Source: Deltaproteobacteria bacterium TL4
GTDB taxonomy: Bacteria; SAR324; NAC60-12
NCBI GenBank assembly: GCA_051382335.1
Contig: JBBCAX010000168.1
Coordinates: forward strand, 1 to 64,000
Direction of reading: 5' to 3'
DNA length: 64,000 bases
Part shown: piece after piece, positions 49,573 through 61,097 of the stretch
Numbering within the stretch: position 1 is the first letter of the stretch
Layout: each line of letters starts with the position of its first letter
The notes under the pieces: generated by a model
What the model saw: the letters and a program-made list of their open reading frames with translations, nothing else
The model's database searches: none
Told to the model about the DNA's origin: nothing
Position numbers and translations under genes: made by a program

Positions 49573-50889
49573 ATGGGACATATAGTAGGTAAAGATGTCT
49601 ATCGAAAGCTCGGTCATAAGATTGATGGTCTGAGTATAAAAGTTCCCTGGAATGAAACCTTTCATGCGATTTTAAAAGAGCTTTACACCACTGAAGAAGC
49701 GGATCTGATCGTAAAAATGCCTTATCGCATGTCAACATTCGAGCAAGTTAAGAAAATCACTCAATATGAAGACTCCAAGTTGAAAAAACTACTAAATGGA
49801 CTCTCTTTCAAAGGCTTGGTGATGGATCTATGTTTAGATGGAGAATATTATTATCAGCCATCTCCCTATATTCCAGGTATCTTTGAGTTTACCATGATGA
49901 GAACGGGAGGCAACCTGAACTACAAAGAATGGGCTAAACTGTTTTACGCCTACATGCATGGTGAAAATTCAGTTTTCGCGGCTAATTGTTCTGAAGAGGA
50001 TAAAGTCTCTATTCATAGGACGCTGCCTCATGAAGGGACTATTGCTGACCAAGATTTTACTGAAGTATTGGACTATGAAAAGGTTACTTCAATTATTGAA
50101 AATAATAACAAATTCGCTATTTCCCTCTGTTCTTGTCGTCATACACAGTTGCATCTGGACCAAAAACATTGCGATGTTCCCTTAGAAAATTGTGGTTCCC
50201 TTGGACTTGGAGCGGATTTATTAATTCGAAACAATTTAGCCCGGGAAGTTTCTAAATCTGAAATGCTGGAAAACGCCGCTCGTTCTAAGGAATTAAATCT
50301 GGTTTTTACTTGTGATAATGTTAAGAAAAATGTGATGAGTCTTTGTTCCTGTTGCGGATGTTGCTGTGGCTTGCTCAAAGGGATCAAGGAACTGGGTTAT
50401 CCAAATACCGTGATGACTTCCAGCTTTATTGCGGCGATTGACCAAGAGACCTGTAACGGCTGTGGGAAATGCGCCAAATACTGTCATATCAATGCCATTG
50501 AAATGATTAGAATTGATGATCCAACCGCTAAGATCAAAAAGAAACCCCAATTGGATGAGGCGCTTTGTATTGGCTGTGGTGTCTGTGCGCTTAAATGTAC
50601 AAAAACAGAATCCGTTAAACTGGTCAAACGAAAGCAACGGGTTCTCCATCCGGAAACAGTATTTGATCGAATTATTCTACAGAGTATTGAAAAAGGCACA
50701 CTACAAAATCAAATATTTTATGATCCACAAAGTATGACTCAAGAAGTTCTACGAAATATCCTTGGAGCATTTTTAAGATTACCTAGCGTTAAAAAAGCCT
50801 TAATGAGTGATCTGCTACGTTCTACTTTTCTTGGTGTCCTCAAAACTGGAACACGTTTGCAGGGTGATGAAAAGCTCGTCAATATTTAA
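49573..50889 (+). CDS. Cys-rich 4Fe-4S dicluster domain protein
   Basis: SD AAGGAGG; CSCRH...C...C, CSCCGCCC, CNGCGKC...C, CIGCGVC...C. Confidence 0.88.
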   Translation: MGHIVGKDVYRKLGHKIDGLSIKVPWNETFHAILKELYTTEEADLIVKMPYRMSTFEQVKKITQYEDSKLKKLLNGLSFKGLVMDLCLDGEYYYQPSPYIPGIFEFTMMRTGGNLNYKEWAKLFYAYMHGENSVFAANCSEEDKVSIHRTLPHEGTIADQDFTEVLDYEKVTSIIENNNKFAISLCSCRHTQLHLDQKHCDVPLENCGSLGLGADLLIRNNLAREVSKSEMLENAARSKELNLVFTCDNVKKNVMSLCSCCGCCCGLLKGIKELGYPNTVMTSSFIAAIDQETCNGCGKCAKYCHINAIEMIRIDDPTAKIKKKPQLDEALCIGCGVCALKCTKTESVKLVKRKQRVLHPETVFDRIILQSIEKGTLQNQIFYDPQSMTQEVLRNILGAFLRLPSVKKALMSDLLRSTFLGVLKTGTRLQGDEKLVNI

Positions 50890-51370: not shown

Positions 51371-51895
51371 TCATTGCATTAACAGTAATAATTCAAACCA
51401 CAATAAAACCGTTCCAGAGCAGTAATACTGGCAGGAGCTCACAGCACCGATGTTTTGCCACCCTATTCTAAGCCATGAGGTGAATAATAAAGCAAGGCTC
51501 CAAATCAAGGCAATCAGGACTTGAAGCCAATGAAGAACGCATAGCAGAAATGGTATTTCTGCAAACATTAAAGACCCTGAGTTTGTTTGATTAAAAAAGG
51601 TGACGCCTTTATAGTATTCCACATTCAGAAAAACCAGGGTGAGTAGAATGGAAAGAACGATCCATAATCTAAAACGTGGTTTATTTTTGCTGCTTAATGC
51701 TCGTTGAGCAAGGCCTATCAAGAGCGTTGCCAAAAACAAGGAACCTCCACTCAGCAGAATAGCGACGAGCGGGAATTGAGTGAAAGGATTGAATTGGAGC
51801 GAAGAAAGTTGAGGTTGAATCAACTTAGATACAATAATCAGCATCCAACCTTCTAAAAGAATAAAAATTCCAATTGCTATTTTTCGATGTTCCAT
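51371..51895 (-). CDS. Divergent heme-copper oxidase subunit III-like membrane protein
   Basis: About five TM helices, FL..EY, and LHWLQV (canonical G.H..HV); 15 bp downstream of the subunit I-like gene. Confidence 0.7.
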   Translation of the reverse strand: MEHRKIAIGIFILLEGWMLIIVSKLIQPQLSSLQFNPFTQFPLVAILLSGGSLFLATLLIGLAQRALSSKNKPRFRLWIVLSILLTLVFLNVEYYKGVTFFNQTNSGSLMFAEIPFLLCVLHWLQVLIALIWSLALLFTSWLRIGWQNIGAVSSCQYYCSGTVLLWFELLLLMQ

Positions 51896-51910
51896 ACGGT
51901 TGTTCTGTTT

Positions 51911-53650
51911 CTATGTTGGTTGAAAAGCATTTCCAAAGCATCCGATGAGGATGATGACAACTCCCATTACAACCATCCAGGTTTGAAGCGCCAGCCCTCC
52001 AATGAGTCCCAGACAACCAAGACTTAACAGCAAGGGCCAAGGCGAGAGAGGCGTGAGATAAACCTTTCCCGACGCCTTAGGCGGAGTATAAGGGGTATTT
52101 TCTCCTTCAGGGGTGTGTTTCAAGTTCCAGAACGCATTCCGTGCATTGACTTGTGGCACTACCGCGAAGTTATAAGCAGGAGGAGGCGAAGGAATACTCC
52201 ACTCCAGCGTATGTCCATCCCAAGGATCCATTTCCTTCTGAGCGACCCCTCGCATTCCACGCATCAAATTGAGTACCCCCGCAAGATTTGCGGCGACGCT
52301 GACAAGAATCCCCGTTCTCACCAAACCTTGTACTGAAGGGGGAACCCACCCCGCAGGATAAATGTAGCCTTCAGAAAGAGAAACCTCGGAAATGGAAAGG
52401 AGGCTCAAACTCATCAAGTAAAAACCTAAAGAATAAAAAACAAAATGAAGCATGGCCATCTTCTGATCGTACATTTTTCCAAATATTTTGGGAAACCAAA
52501 AGTACACTCCGGCAAATAACGCATTAAGCGTCGTGCCGAAAATCAAAAAATGAAAATGGCTTGTCATATAATAGTGGGACGGGCTTTGCACACTGCCTAA
52601 AGAAATAAACTTTGCCGCACCACTAATTCCACATAAAACAGGAGTAACAAGAGCCATTATGGCAAAAAATAAGGCAATATTAAACGTAAACGTATAGCGC
52701 GTAAAGTGCAGTATTGCCGCTATCGCCTGAAGACTTAACAGAAAAAACGTGCCTAACATGAATAGAGCGCTTGCCGGATTCAGCGTATCGGATTGTGTAA
52801 ACAAAGCCATCAGCCAGGCCAACAGGGCCATGCCCGGAATGAGGGCACTGATCCCTAATTGAAACAGATACCCTTTCAACAAACGCTTGGAACATACAGG
52901 GATGATGGTAAGCGCGATACTTAGAGCAGGGACAACAAGGACGAGTATTTCGGGATGTAGCTTCCAGGATAAGGGCTCAGACCAGGCGAAATCTGCCGTT
53001 TGAATGAGAGCGTATAACTTCATGGTCCAAAGTTGATCCATTAAGCGCAACAACGCACCTAAGCCGATCAGCGGCCAAACTAAAAGCCACGTTGAACAGG
53101 TAAAAATAACAGCCCAGACAAACAGCGGGATTCGACCCAGACTCATCCCTGGAGCACGTAAATTCCAGATAGTCACCAGGAGATTCAAACTCGTACAAAC
53201 GATGGAGAGTGACAGCATCAAAGTGCCTGAGGGAGAACCACTCAGTAATTGAAGGTTATATTCTCCAAACAGAATAATGAGGCTTCCCCATAAAAAGCAC
53301 CACCACCCGAAAGTCTGCAAGCGCGGAAGCGCCATGGTTCCCGCACCGATCATCAAAGGAACCAGATAATTAAACAGACCAATCAACAGAGGGTAGAGGA
53401 CCAGTAATAGGGACATTCCATCGTAAAACGCAAAAAAAGCGGGTTGGGTCTGGGTATACTGAAAATCAGTAATAAAGCGTTGCAGCAGAACGCTTCCGAC
53501 ACCACCAATGACGAGTAAAACTAAAGCATAAACGATATACAGCAGACCAATACGTTTATGATCAACCGTCAACATCCAACTTAAAGGCCCCCGAGGTTGA
53601 AAATAATGTTTGACCGAGATCTCTGGCATAAACTCCTTTCTGTCTGACAA
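51911..53650 (-). CDS. Heme-copper oxidase subunit I-like protein lacking most active-site ligands
   Basis: TVDHKRIG.LY, NYLVPLMIGA..MA.PRL, RAPGM....PLFVW, HPEI, HFH, YFWFPK.FG, DPWDG.TLEW..PSPPP.YNF. Confidence 0.88.
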   Translation of the reverse strand: MSDRKEFMPEISVKHYFQPRGPLSWMLTVDHKRIGLLYIVYALVLLVIGGVGSVLLQRFITDFQYTQTQPAFFAFYDGMSLLLVLYPLLIGLFNYLVPLMIGAGTMALPRLQTFGWWCFLWGSLIILFGEYNLQLLSGSPSGTLMLSLSIVCTSLNLLVTIWNLRAPGMSLGRIPLFVWAVIFTCSTWLLVWPLIGLGALLRLMDQLWTMKLYALIQTADFAWSEPLSWKLHPEILVLVVPALSIALTIIPVCSKRLLKGYLFQLGISALIPGMALLAWLMALFTQSDTLNPASALFMLGTFFLLSLQAIAAILHFTRYTFTFNIALFFAIMALVTPVLCGISGAAKFISLGSVQSPSHYYMTSHFHFLIFGTTLNALFAGVYFWFPKIFGKMYDQKMAMLHFVFYSLGFYLMSLSLLSISEVSLSEGYIYPAGWVPPSVQGLVRTGILVSVAANLAGVLNLMRGMRGVAQKEMDPWDGHTLEWSIPSPPPAYNFAVVPQVNARNAFWNLKHTPEGENTPYTPPKASGKVYLTPLSPWPLLLSLGCLGLIGGLALQTWMVVMGVVIILIGCFGNAFQPT

Positions 53651-54999: not shown

Positions 55000-57900
55000 T
55001 TAGCTTCTTTGAAATTCCGCTCGTTCGATCAACTCAATCTGCATATCCCGATTGAGTGTGACAAAGTAAGCGTTATAGCCTGAAATCCGAACCAGTAAAT
55101 CTTTATAGTTTTCAGGGTGCAACATTGCGTCTCGAAGGACTGCGGAACTGACAACATTCAACTGAATTTGCATCCCTCCTAATTCCACATAAGACGTTAC
55201 ATAAGCCTTCATATTATCCACCGTTTGTTCATGAGTGTCTTCTGCGGAAGGCACAAATTTGATATTAAAGGCAATGTTGTTGTTCATGTGATGTGGATTG
55301 AGTTCCGCGACATCCCGGATGTTGTCCAGCAGATTTTTTGAAGCATGAGATGAAGGCGTCAAACCTGGAGTGAAGGCTTTCCCCGCAAGCCTTCCGGAAG
55401 GAAGTGTGCCTGTCAGACTGCCAAAGGCGACGTGATTGGACATCGACCAGAATCCAGTCGTATAGGGACCTCCACGAAAATTCGTTTTCTGAGCAAAATA
55501 ATCATGCACAAATTGAGTTAAGCGATTGGCCATTGCTTTAGCTTCTTCGTCTCCAGAACCGAATTTAGGGACTTTTTTGAGGATGATCGCGTGAAGTTTG
55601 GAATGCTCTTCGAAATTATTAAGAAGGGCGGATTTCAATTCAGAGAAACTCACAGTTTTTTGATCAAAAACGAGTTTTTTGATCGTCATTAACGAATCCA
55701 CAATGTCAACCAAGCCAATGCACGCCACTCCGGACGTATTGTAACGCGCACCCCCTTTTGTGATATCCTTGCCCTTTTCGATGCTTCCCTCAATCATTGA
55801 CGAAAGTAAAGGCGTTGGACGAAGAACACTATGGGCTTTTCCAAGGATATTGTTATATTCAACCGACTGATCAATCAGAAACGTCAGTTGTTGGGTGTAG
55901 GCGCTGAAAAATGCATCAAAGGTTTGAAACGCGCCTTGCTCAATCTCTCCTGTTTCAGGGCCGACTTTCCAATGCATCAAAGGATGATATCCGTTATACA
56001 AAGCCATTTCCAGTGCGGCGACAAGGTTCAACATCATACAGTTGGTGTGTCCCATGTGTTTCCCCGAAATAGTGGGTTCGACACATCCGGTAGCCGCCCA
56101 GTCATTCCGATCCTGTTCCTGGTAATTGAGTTGTTTAATGGCTTCCAGCACAATTTCATCATTGTGAATTGAAGGTGTCGCTGTCGTGATCAGATTGACT
56201 TCACAAAGTCGCTTGAGATACGAATCGCTGTTTTTCAGATGGTGATAACGCGCGTTCACGTTGGGATCACGAATCTTCAACATTTCGGTTACTTTGAGAA
56301 AAATGTAAGTCATATCGTTCACGGCGTTTTCGCCACTGGGCGTAACGCCTCCCAGGGTAATCGCCTGATCGGAGGAACTTCCTCCAAACAAGTAGTTTCC
56401 GATATCAGGTGTTAATGGTAAATGATCCGTACAGCGCATGTAAAAACAGCCCACAATCTCAAGAACATGGTGCAGATACGCTGCCTTTGCTTTTGGGGTT
56501 TTGAGCTTTGTCATATCCGCCTCAAAATAAGGCTGAAGCCATTGATCCATTCTCCCTAAGGATAACCCCGCATTTGTATTTTCCATGTGCAGGCATACCC
56601 ATCCAATCCAAATAGTATTCAGGGCTTCGTCAAGGGTGTTACAACCGTTTTCTGGAGCGGACGCGCAAATTTCGGCAAGGTGTTCGAGTTCCGATTTTCG
56701 CTTGGGGTCTTGCGTCATTTTTGCTTCTGTTTGAGCTTGAAATGATAAGTTTTTACTATAGCTAATCAAGCCTTCCAGACAAATTTGCATGGCTTCCAGC
56801 GTAGTTCTTTGCTCCGTACTTAAGTTTTGATCTTCTTGAAGTTTTTGATCAATTTCATGAATGATTCCTCGTGCGCCAATTTTCAACAATTTAGGAAAAT
56901 CAGCAATGGTATGAGAGATCGCGACCGTTTTCCACAAAAAATAAACTGCGAAACGGTCATCTAATTTTTGGCACAGAGGCTCATTATAGTGTTCTCGGAC
57001 CCACTCCTTAAAACAGCGTTTGAACCAATAAGGAAAGACCTCCTTGTGAAGTATTCTGAGATCTTTCTCAGCAACGGAATAAGGGTTTAGTGTCCGCTCA
57101 GAGAGCGTTTTCAATTCTCCCCAGATCAAGCTTCCATGGGCATCAGGATAAAGGACCACACCAATCGCTTGGGTTGTCGTTGTCCCTGCAATCAGATCGT
57201 CTTTGCGAATCATGGGTTTTTTATTTTCCATCAGATATTTGAAAGCTAACGCTTGTCGAAGTTCAGGAACCCAAGCTTGTTTTGATGAATTTTGTTCGAA
57301 GCCATTATGCTGAAACCAGCGTGTGAGCAGCAGCGGTCTTTCCACACAGAGTTGCGGCATGATATTAAAATGAATATCCAAAAAATTTTGTAACCGAGGG
57401 AATTGTTCCAAGGCAAACTGAGAAAGAAAAGGATCCTCAAGATGCCGCACCTGATCGGTTTGGGTGGAGGTCAATTCCGCGTGAGGACGCTTCAACACGG
57501 GAGCCGGGAGGGAGGTTCCGTTTTGAGCAATTTCCTTCGCTTTTTCCCTGTCCAACAGACGTTGCGCACGCATCCTTTTTTGATGTTGAGGAGCCAAAAG
57601 GAGGGATAAATAGAAATTGAAAAGCGACATATAGTTCATGTTTCCCTCAATCCGCATTTTTCCATTCATCAGCATCAACAACATTTCATTAGGGCTTACC
57701 GTTAAGGCTTCCTTTGCGCTCTCATCATCACTGTAGATCAAGGTTGCGTTGGCACTAGAGGGAATCTTTGACAGAACCCGCACTTTCCCATCATTGAACT
57801 GGATACACTGCTCAATGCTTCCGGATTCGGTCCGTATTCCAATAGACGCGTTAATCCAGTCTTCATTGCCGCGTAAATATTTTTTCAATGAGGGCCGAGT

Positions 57901-58032
57901 GTTGAAGTTCAAGGCCATAACCTGTAATAAAAGATGAGCCACCGCATTGGCGATAGTTTTATTTCCTGCAAGAATGCGCTTATAGTGATCCAAAGGTTCA
58001 CCGGGAAAGAGTAAATACAGGGATTGCTTCAT
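55000..58032 (-). CDS. Glycyl radical enzyme (PFL2-like) with N-terminal SCP2-like domain
   Basis: C-terminal LLVRISGY glycyl loop, GCVEP Cys loop, GRMDQ.L.PY, PKFG, PSGRLAG, QLNV. N-terminal F..GKV......A.ATL....GKMRIEGN pattern. Confidence 0.9.
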   Translation of the reverse strand: MKQSLYLLFPGEPLDHYKRILAGNKTIANAVAHLLLQVMALNFNTRPSLKKYLRGNEDWINASIGIRTESGSIEQCIQFNDGKVRVLSKIPSSANATLIYSDDESAKEALTVSPNEMLLMLMNGKMRIEGNMNYMSLFNFYLSLLLAPQHQKRMRAQRLLDREKAKEIAQNGTSLPAPVLKRPHAELTSTQTDQVRHLEDPFLSQFALEQFPRLQNFLDIHFNIMPQLCVERPLLLTRWFQHNGFEQNSSKQAWVPELRQALAFKYLMENKKPMIRKDDLIAGTTTTQAIGVVLYPDAHGSLIWGELKTLSERTLNPYSVAEKDLRILHKEVFPYWFKRCFKEWVREHYNEPLCQKLDDRFAVYFLWKTVAISHTIADFPKLLKIGARGIIHEIDQKLQEDQNLSTEQRTTLEAMQICLEGLISYSKNLSFQAQTEAKMTQDPKRKSELEHLAEICASAPENGCNTLDEALNTIWIGWVCLHMENTNAGLSLGRMDQWLQPYFEADMTKLKTPKAKAAYLHHVLEIVGCFYMRCTDHLPLTPDIGNYLFGGSSSDQAITLGGVTPSGENAVNDMTYIFLKVTEMLKIRDPNVNARYHHLKNSDSYLKRLCEVNLITTATPSIHNDEIVLEAIKQLNYQEQDRNDWAATGCVEPTISGKHMGHTNCMMLNLVAALEMALYNGYHPLMHWKVGPETGEIEQGAFQTFDAFFSAYTQQLTFLIDQSVEYNNILGKAHSVLRPTPLLSSMIEGSIEKGKDITKGGARYNTSGVACIGLVDIVDSLMTIKKLVFDQKTVSFSELKSALLNNFEEHSKLHAIILKKVPKFGSGDEEAKAMANRLTQFVHDYFAQKTNFRGGPYTTGFWSMSNHVAFGSLTGTLPSGRLAGKAFTPGLTPSSHASKNLLDNIRDVAELNPHHMNNNIAFNIKFVPSAEDTHEQTVDNMKAYVTSYVELGGMQIQLNVVSSAVLRDAMLHPENYKDLLVRISGYNAYFVTLNRDMQIELIERAEFQRS

Positions 58033-60242: not shown

Positions 60243-61097
60243 GTGCTTATGTTGAATCGTTATTTAGAGTTGATCAAATTTTCTCATACTGTTTTTGCCC
60301 TTCCTTTTGCGTTGGTTGCCGTTCTGGTTGCAACCTCCGGTGCCCCCGCGTTAGGTGATGTCTTCTGGATTATTGTGGCCATGGCAGGTGCTCGTTCCGG
60401 CGCAATGGGGTTTAACCGCTGGATTGATCGCAGATTTGATGCCAACAATCCAAGAACGCAAAAGCGTCCTTCCGTGACTGGAGAAGTTTCTTCTCCATCC
60501 ATGATCCTCTTTATTGTGATTTCATATGCAGCGTTAGTGGTTGCCTCTTATCAACTGAATCTTTTGGCCTTCACCCTTTCCCCGATCGCAATTTTCATTA
60601 CCATGTTTTATTCCTATACAAAGCGATTCACCGCCTATTCGCATCTGTTTTTAGGTTTTGCCATTGGTTCTGCCCCTATTGCGGCGTGGATTGCTGTGGA
60701 TGGTAGCATCACTCCGTCATCTTTATTGCTCGGAAGTTCAGTTCTGTGTTGGATTGCGGGGTTTGATGTATTGTATGCACTCCAAGACCTGGATTTTGAT
60801 AAACAAGAAGGCCTGTTTTCGATTCCGGCACGATTCGGTGTTAATAAAAGTTTAGTCATTGCGCGTGTCCTTCATTTGACAACCGTTTTGTTATGGTTCG
60901 GTTTCTACAGCACAACCAACCTCAAGCAATGGTTTTTAGTCGGAATCCTAATTTGCGGCGCTTTACTGGTTTGGGAACATTATCTCCTACGCGAAGATGA
61001 CTTAACTCACTTGAATACGGCCTTTTTTAATATGAATGGTTACATCAGTATGACCATGCTGATTTTTACAGGCTTGTCTTATTGGTTCCCGAGTTAG
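60243..61097 (+). CDS. UbiA-family polyprenyltransferase (MqnP-like)
   Basis: IKFSHTVFALPFA, ARSGAMGFNR..D...D..NPRT..R, YSYTKRFT, GFD..YA.QD..FD, AFF..NG. Confidence 0.88.
   Translation: MLMLNRYLELIKFSHTVFALPFALVAVLVATSGAPALGDVFWIIVAMAGARSGAMGFNRWIDRRFDANNPRTQKRPSVTGEVSSPSMILFIVISYAALVVASYQLNLLAFTLSPIAIFITMFYSYTKRFTAYSHLFLGFAIGSAPIAAWIAVDGSITPSSLLLGSSVLCWIAGFDVLYALQDLDFDKQEGLFSIPARFGVNKSLVIARVLHLTTVLLWFGFYSTTNLKQWFLVGILICGALLVWEHYLLREDDLTHLNTAFFNMNGYISMTMLIFTGLSYWFPS

Follow-up and report, generated by a model that had tools for sequence, protein, structure and literature searches.

A probably non-catalytic cytochrome oxidase subunit I/III pair in a SAR324 genome where no aa3 oxidase was found

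In the heme-copper oxidase (HCO) superfamily, O2 reduction requires a high-spin heme, a CuB ion on three His and a His-Tyr cofactor. NO reductase families are without the Tyr and retain the low-spin heme, the high-spin heme and a metal site of three to four ligands; variant NO reductases, too, keep nearly all of the active-site His (PMC11214002, in its accessible part). A COX1-like protein without metal ligands is also on record. This 'deranged' protein of Acetobacter is retained beside ctaB in cells that respire via another oxidase, and a structural role has been proposed for it (excerpts of PMC10715153, citing Matsutani 2014). In the supercomplex of alternative complex III (ACIII) with aa3 oxidase from F. 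johnsoniae, and in the actinobacterial III2IV2 supercomplexes, the contacts with complex III run through the five-helix subunit III/CtaE (PMC8361435, accessible portion). Here we describe two adjacent genes related to subunits I and III of A1-family oxidases, located in a 64,000-nucleotide stretch of contig JBBCAX010000168.1 (hereafter, the window) from Deltaproteobacteria bacterium TL4 of the SAR324 lineage. The pair is very probably non-catalytic and under selection, and it persists in a genome where we found no aa3 oxidase.

The two genes and the start region are as follows.

51911..53629, minus strand: pseudo-subunit I, long-form A1 type, with 12 core helices and two C-terminal helices; 572 aa from ATG 53629 (579 aa from TTG 53650)
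51371..51895, minus strand: pseudo-subunit III, CtaE/CyoC-type, 5 helices, 174 aa; C-terminal WHFVD motif replaced
51896..51910, minus strand: 15-bp spacer between the two genes, read from the sequence
53633..53639, minus strand: Shine-Dalgarno-like AAAGGAG, 3 nt before ATG 53629

The initial annotation of this DNA had reported an uninterrupted 579-aa open reading frame (ORF), and 51911-53650(-) is indeed open over 579 codons from TTG. ATG 53629 is the likelier start, giving 572 aa, because AAAGGAG lies 3 nt upstream of it and the database protein P0003 begins there. The codon use of the subunit I gene is ordinary (37th percentile), and a scan for promoters and terminators gave counts at chance level (6 vs 6.7 and 4 vs 5.3). 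Pseudo-subunit I scores 158 bits against PF00115 (COX1) and 222 bits against TIGR02891 (CtaD), for which the cut-off is 671. Its closest relatives of solved structure are A1 oxidases (E 5e-49). The AlphaFold2 (AF2) model has a mean predicted local distance difference test (pLDDT) score of 60; Foldseek matches it to subunit I of bo3 oxidase at E 6e-15, and TM-scores against A1-family oxidase structures are 0.6-0.68. Both the PF00115 and the Foldseek matches thus place the protein in the fold and sequence family of HCO subunit I, to which the functional A-family O2 reductases belong. With the A1-family oxidases (B. subtilis aa3-600, 6KOC; E. coli bo3; T. thermophilus caa3; the coxB-coxA-coxC type of SAR324 families f2/f3), the pair shares the fold, the 14-helix layout, the I-then-III gene order, the HPE motif and the cytoplasmic loop and tail motifs, and these are its nearest canonical group in both of the trees described below. 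Unlike them, the TL4 pair has lost three of the six metal-ligand His, the Tyr, the Arg pair, the D- and K-channel entries and part of loop III-IV, and TL4 has no subunit II gene and no heme O/A synthases that we could find.

Orthologs were collected, as the initial annotation had proposed. Among 40 relatives, a degenerate copy was present in one genome, G009, which belongs to the same family as TL4 (G000) and to a sister genus. G009 carries an intact I-then-III pair with 28-31% and 29-31% identity to the TL4 proteins; its protein is identical to a database record from a SAR324 cluster bacterium, and a 99% twin pair is also recorded. The 99% twins (P0124 vs P0273) differ at 10 alignment positions, and between positions 66 and 76 they show a one-residue insertion and a compensating one-residue deletion around the former heme site of helix II. 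Profile searches found the pair in 2 of 88 phylum genomes, G000 and G009, which were also the sources of the profile queries; the lower-scoring subunit I matches that we inspected were canonical. A profile search of 1.84 billion representatives added two metagenome orthologs, P0125 (535 aa) and the fragment P0127 (313 aa), the latter with 43% identity to TL4 pseudo-subunit I. Two pattern scans, one of genome and one of metagenome contigs, matched at least some 600 stretches each; the 160 loci retained from the matches listed included no further member, and the family size is a lower bound.

Next, we aligned pseudo-subunit I to its canonical homologues. Its residues are numbered from the TTG start, and the canonical positions carry what we take to be the E. 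coli residue numbers. The sites in question are these.

53420..53425, minus strand: helix II site, Y76 for the low-spin heme His and D77 for the next Gly
52943..52957, minus strand: helix VI HPEIL; H232 and E234 retained in 3/3 full-length orthologs, cross-linking Tyr lost (L236)
52805..52810, minus strand: erstwhile CuB His pair, now M281-A282 (from the alignment)
52550..52558, minus strand: helix X HFH (H365, H367); first His in 3/4 orthologs, second in 2/4

In helix II, H106 is replaced by Y76 and G107 by D77, an Asp common to 3/3 full-length orthologs and found in 0/60 canonical proteins. The D-channel Asp D135 has become T105, HPEVY has become HPEIL (Y288 to L236), both helix VII CuB His are gone (H333/H334 to M281/A282) and the K-channel Lys K362 has become Q308. 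SLSEG stands in place of the PRR loop, the propionate-binding Arg pair being gone, and loop III-IV is shortened by about 20 residues. The initial annotation had called the loss of the helix II His, the Tyr, the CuB pair, PRR, the D-channel Asp and the K-channel Lys by eye, and every one of these held on alignment; likewise, the helix VI His and the helix X HFH that it saw remaining are H232, H365 and H367, with E234 retained as well. Since HPEVY, WxHH and HxH are kept in 119/119 of the nearest database homologues, the losses are not an alignment artefact.

These replacements bear on each metal centre. Three of the six metal-ligand His are lost. The low-spin heme has no His pair, as helix II reads Y/S/Y in the full-length orthologs and the second helix X His reads H/Q/F/H across the four. 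Of the three His and the cross-linked Tyr that hold CuB, H232 alone remains. The high-spin heme His of helix X is present as H365, and in 3/4 orthologs. In the channels, D135 is a Thr, N124 reads N/S/S and K362 is a Gln; E286 is retained, and the entry residues vary among the orthologs. Nor does the site resemble any of the NO reductases (cNOR, qNOR, eNOR, sNOR, gNOR, nNOR), both helix VII ligands being hydrophobic and variable among the orthologs. Judged from these residues, pseudo-subunit I is predicted to be a protein that cannot act as an O2 reductase or an NO reductase.

We then asked what the orthologs conserve, using 60 of the 119 canonical homologues and setting the membrane sides from the model helices and the known topology. 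Of the residues conserved in at least 90% of canonical proteins, 40/120 on the cytoplasmic side are kept in all orthologs, compared with 9/111 on the periplasmic side (Fisher p 2e-6), and the bias is significant for each ortholog alone (p <= 0.007). Pairwise identity among orthologs is 33-75% in the cytoplasmic loops and 0-24% in the periplasmic loops, where canonical pairs show 55-73%. Because cytoplasmic-side residues survive and the periplasmic side is near background, the cofactor-holding, subunit II-facing half was abandoned wholesale, beyond the catalytic residues. The initial annotation had described a loss focused on catalytic residues, which has to be corrected, as the whole periplasmic half has diverged to near-background identity. 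Its suggestion of a heme carrier or sensor is weakened: the helix X motif reads HFH in TL4, HVQ in G009, YFF in P0125 and HMH in P0127, and the helix II His is missing in all three full-length proteins. HPE is retained in 3/3 of these. Ten derived residues, including D77, W121, W188, W192, Q264 and P337, occur in 3/3 full-length orthologs and 0/60 canonical proteins; as these three orthologs served to define the sites, their 10/10 is circular. Sixty other degenerate proteins carry at most 2 of the ten.

G000 and G009 are sisters in an RpoB tree (support 99; 21/29 loci used), their RpoB and ActC being 76% and 83% identical, and the pair evolves fast yet remains in frame. When we simulated random neutral substitution (substitutions only) to 31% identity, the mean was 30 stops and 0/300 runs were stop-free. 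The intact orthologs (29-43% identity), the one-sided conservation and the 0/300 stop-free runs together support the initial proposal of repurposing rather than random decay.

The four orthologs form a single clade with support 100 in both IQ-TREE and FastTree; the former was a quick run of 39 rows with 6 intended rows missing and long branches, the latter had 72 rows and used 60 of 65 other degenerate matches. The clade branches close to the canonical long-form A1 proteins, the SAR324 f2/f3 coxB-A-C type among them, and away from the ligand-less proteins of Acidimicrobiia. Since the branches are long and the tree quick, the placement near the long-form A1 lineage is tentative and the donor lineage unsure. 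The topology is consistent with the TL4/G009 clade having arisen separately from other ligand-less CoxI.

COX1 is matched twice in the TL4 assembly (6.6 Mb, 445 contigs, completeness 100, contamination 2.6), by pseudo-subunit I and by the ccoNO fusion of a cbb3 operon on contig C38, and cbb3 is the sole intact oxidase found in this genome. COX3 had no match in the genome, and the one COX2 match over the cut-off is a 700-aa NosZ-like frame, no CoxII; we take this frame to be NosZ on our own reading. In the TL4 genome, CtaA was not found, Caa3_CtaG gave nothing over the cut-off, heme O synthase (ctaB) stayed below it (best 82 of 210 bits), and tblastn with the ctaB, coxII, coxIII and coxIV of G009 returned no orthologs. 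Bd oxidase and bc1 cytochrome b had no match there either. Neither a subunit II of the CuA or quinol type nor a heme O/A synthase was thus found in this 445-contig assembly. CtaA is present in 42/44 family genomes, the two exceptions having a completeness of 57% and 67%. G009 carries ctaA and its cox operon on separate contigs, and a single assembly gap is therefore unlikely as the explanation in TL4. The initial annotation had proposed checking for a canonical cox operon elsewhere in the genome; none was found. With no CoxII, canonical CoxI/III, CtaA or CtaB found, the pair cannot serve an aa3 oxidase in TL4, and the earlier idea of an assembly scaffold or regulatory paralog is untenable for aa3 there.

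Some further features of respiration were seen. In the TL4 cbb3 operon (G000:C38:28430-33980), ccoN and ccoO are fused in a 701-aa ORF, followed by ccoP-, ccoG-, ccoH- and DsbD-like genes. At G000:C349:6000-15600, a NosZ-like gene with upstream c-type cytochromes and nosD/F/Y/L-like genes suggests N2O respiration. A UbiA gene in the window (60243-61097) was considered as ctaB and rejected, being TIGR01475/MqnP-like. An ActA-F-like (ACIII) operon, named from gene order and heme motifs, is on contig C159. G009 has aa3, ctaB and ctaA and five HCO homologues, and its cox operon holds two coxIII genes. The canonical CoxI of family f1 (L016-L033) reads WAHHQF and is without the PRR motif; in G009, one Arg pair stands as HRR. 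A second divergent kind of HCO subunit I-like protein is encoded at G009:C27:27936-29324 (L298) and G003:C19:196458-197867 (L300); these proteins have 463-470 aa, score 56-71 bits against PF00115, carry an AHYHG motif and have no HH pair that we could see. The L300 copy in G003 stands before a B-type-like oxidase operon, and a similar weak match is in G004:C7.

The subunit III-like gene, reported initially as a short gene after 15 bp with no adjacent subunit II or cta gene, was borne out on both counts. Pfam, PF00510 included, gave no match for the 174-aa protein. Comparing it with SAR324 CoxIII by hhalign gave probability 95.9 and E 6e-9; AF2 predicted five long helices (pLDDT 83), and the best Foldseek rows were CoxIII chains, with TM up to 0.8 and E >= 2e-3. 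A five-helix fold homologous to CoxIII is thus encoded after subunit I. The codon adaptation of the gene is low (8th percentile), and a new Glu in the last helix is common to both copies. A model of the I-III complex scored 0.70, a mark reached by 116/157 solved complexes vs 2/215 mismatched pairs, while the best of 3 controls scored 0.00; contact agreement among runs was at least 85% and partner pLDDT at least 74. Both alignments contained canonical subunits, and the passing score may reflect resemblance to solved I-III pairs. The model shows likeness to solved complexes, not proof that the TL4 copy binds.

What, then, could the pair do? It may derive from a long-form A1 coxB-A-C operon that then lost coxB, and the two genes would now encode a non-catalytic membrane complex of I and III. 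We give roughly even chances to a respiratory pseudo-enzyme independent of its parent, one that either docks on ACIII and steers electrons between terminal reductases or offers its vacant heme cavities (D77, H232/E234) as a binding site or channel. Docking ranks first among the specific roles because subunit I and the five-helix subunit III remain, and subunit III is the complex III contact elsewhere. By this analogy, a cofactor-free I+III core might act as a structural stand-in for aa3 oxidase and dock on ACIII through subunit III, a proposal that we put a little short of an even chance. Docking might stabilise ACIII in TL4; in G009, which still has aa3, it might block aa3 docking and so favour cbb3 or N2O reductase. 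The supercomplex oxidases of F. johnsoniae and actinobacteria share with TL4 the part that makes the contact and differ in being catalytic (PMC8361435, accessible portion), and ACIII contact is for the TL4 pair a proposal only.

Several observations weigh against docking on ACIII. The pair and ACIII are unlinked; in G000 they are on different contigs, in G009 some 33 kb separate them, and the genes flanking the pair in G009 are unlike those in G000. ACIII occurs in 81/88 phylum genomes and the pair in 2/88, which gives no co-occurrence signal. The predicted I-III interface is not above the rest in conservation (5/26 vs 84/534, p 0.59). The retained cytoplasmic motifs could simply be fold requirements, and a pure scaffold leaves the invariant buried D77, H232 and E234 unexplained.

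Two rival roles involve the former heme sites. H232 and H365, facing the former heme a3/CuB pocket, might hold one bis-His heme b open to the periplasm, so that the protein would bind a single heme or metal as a sensor, buffer or carrier. Mutation of Tyr288 reportedly removes CuB and turns heme a3 low-spin; H232 is present in 3/3 and H365 in 3/4 orthologs, the fourth having a Tyr, a possible heme ligand, and both carrier genomes have mamK, so that iron and redox handling matters there. We nevertheless consider such a binder unlikely, as the pocket-lining residues and the propionate-binding Arg pair are not conserved, P0125 has neither helix X His, heme O and A synthases were not found in the TL4 genome, two of the four mamK genomes are without the pair and the two carriers are sisters. 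Marginally less likely again is a repurposed channel or carrier, in which protons, ions, gas or lipid would pass through the emptied heme cavities, whose lining includes the invariant D77, H232, E234 and Q264. The ten derived residues, the new subunit III Glu in both copies and a membrane-transporter-like gene 14 bp downstream of the pair in G009 fit this; the transporter link, however, is absent in G000, the D- and K-entry residues are lost and variable, and the AF2 model of subunit I has a mean pLDDT of 60.

The pair could also be a functionless relic that is decaying very slowly and happens to be still in frame. It evolves far faster than core genes (29-31% vs RpoB 76% and ActC 83%), it was not found in 86/88 phylum genomes, the 10 alignment positions at which the near-identical twins disagree include two compensating indels close to helix II, and the subunit III codon adaptation is low. 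Against this, neither gene is interrupted by a stop in either of the two genera, P0125 adds a full-length and P0127 a partial ortholog, no neutral run stayed stop-free, conservation is one-sided and subunit I codon use is ordinary; a relic is improbable. We regard as slightly more improbable still a partner in assembly or heme O/A hand-over for aa3 oxidase or CtaB, as suggested for the Acetobacter protein, which is proposed to stabilise CtaB (excerpts of PMC10715153). G009 does have aa3, ctaB and ctaA, and in Acidimicrobiia loci L148 and L161 ligand-less CoxI/III genes follow ctaB inside a cox operon, but G000 is without ctaA and coxII and has no ctaB or ctaG over the cut-off, and in G009 the pair does not adjoin ctaB. 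An enzyme with a new active site, of an NO-reductase-like kind, is hardly credible. HCO families without the Tyr exist, yet no family before gNOR was seen to have even a single active-site His replaced (PMC11214002, in its accessible part), and the TL4 pair has lost two CuB His and the low-spin heme His as well as the subunit for electron entry, with replacements that vary among orthologs.

The pair is not the only ligand-less CoxI. Such proteins arose repeatedly: of 149 profile matches from a 50%-identity library, which over-represents divergent proteins, 67 show replacement of one or more metal His and 43 of three or more. The Acetobacter gene, compared here by description and not by sequence, clusters with ctaB (PMC10715153, excerpts); in G000 and G009 there is no ctaB near the pair, and the partner in TL4 is a subunit III homologue. 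Operons of Acidimicrobiia (L148:793-5960, L161:862-5906, L117, L131) hold ligand-less CoxI- and CoxIII-like genes between ctaB and canonical coxB-coxA-coxC. Like the TL4 pair, these modules have an intact ligand-less subunit I and then a subunit III-like gene; they differ in lying inside a working cox operon, in being without the two C-terminal helices, in having 1/10 derived residues and in forming a separate clade in FastTree, and the TL4 pair shares neither that clade nor the location between ctaB and coxB. Several other clades are ligand-less or ligand-altered (P0136-P0270), among them one with WFYAHPAxY/WGQHL and a His-free one from Solirubrobacterales with 62 members in its 90% cluster.

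The separate origin, the one-sided conservation and the survival in a genome in which neither the parent enzyme nor its heme synthases were found set the SAR324 pair apart. It appears to be a real, selected pseudo-oxidase of a small family. Our literature search, which left most subscription journals outside its coverage, met no description of it, and Pei et al. 2014 (HCO homologues) may already cover such proteins. The roles proposed so far link ligand-less CoxI to working aa3 or to CtaB. As the pair persists where neither was found, at least one lineage would have a parent-independent function, which makes that function testable. Of the many ligand-less CoxI families of independent origin, this one would, if true, be the clearest case, since TL4 has no aa3 for it to serve. 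At NCBI the G009 protein bears the name 'cbb3-type cytochrome c oxidase subunit I', and with such misnaming COX1 counts overstate aerobic capacity.

Both carriers are also among the 4/88 phylum genomes with mamK-like genes (G000, G009, G003, G007). A magnetosome role of the pair is not supported, as the genes are unlinked, 2/4 mamK genomes are without the pair and the carriers are sisters; the presence of mamK in both is a lead only. The TL4 magnetosome cluster (G000:C333:600-28800, L255) has two mamK-like and two mamQ-like genes, mamB, mamM and mamE/O/P/A-like genes, and its MamK, MamB and MamM exceed curated cut-offs. In the window itself, the gene at 49573-50889(+), convergent with the pseudo-oxidase pair, encodes an Fe-S protein of 438 aa that has 4Fe-4S motifs at the C-terminus and is rich in Cys in the middle. 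The protein encoded at 55000-58032(-) is unusual as a fusion: it is a glycyl radical enzyme of 1010 aa (PFL-like, 566 bits) whose N-terminal domain weakly matches SCP2 sterol carriers (E 0.007).

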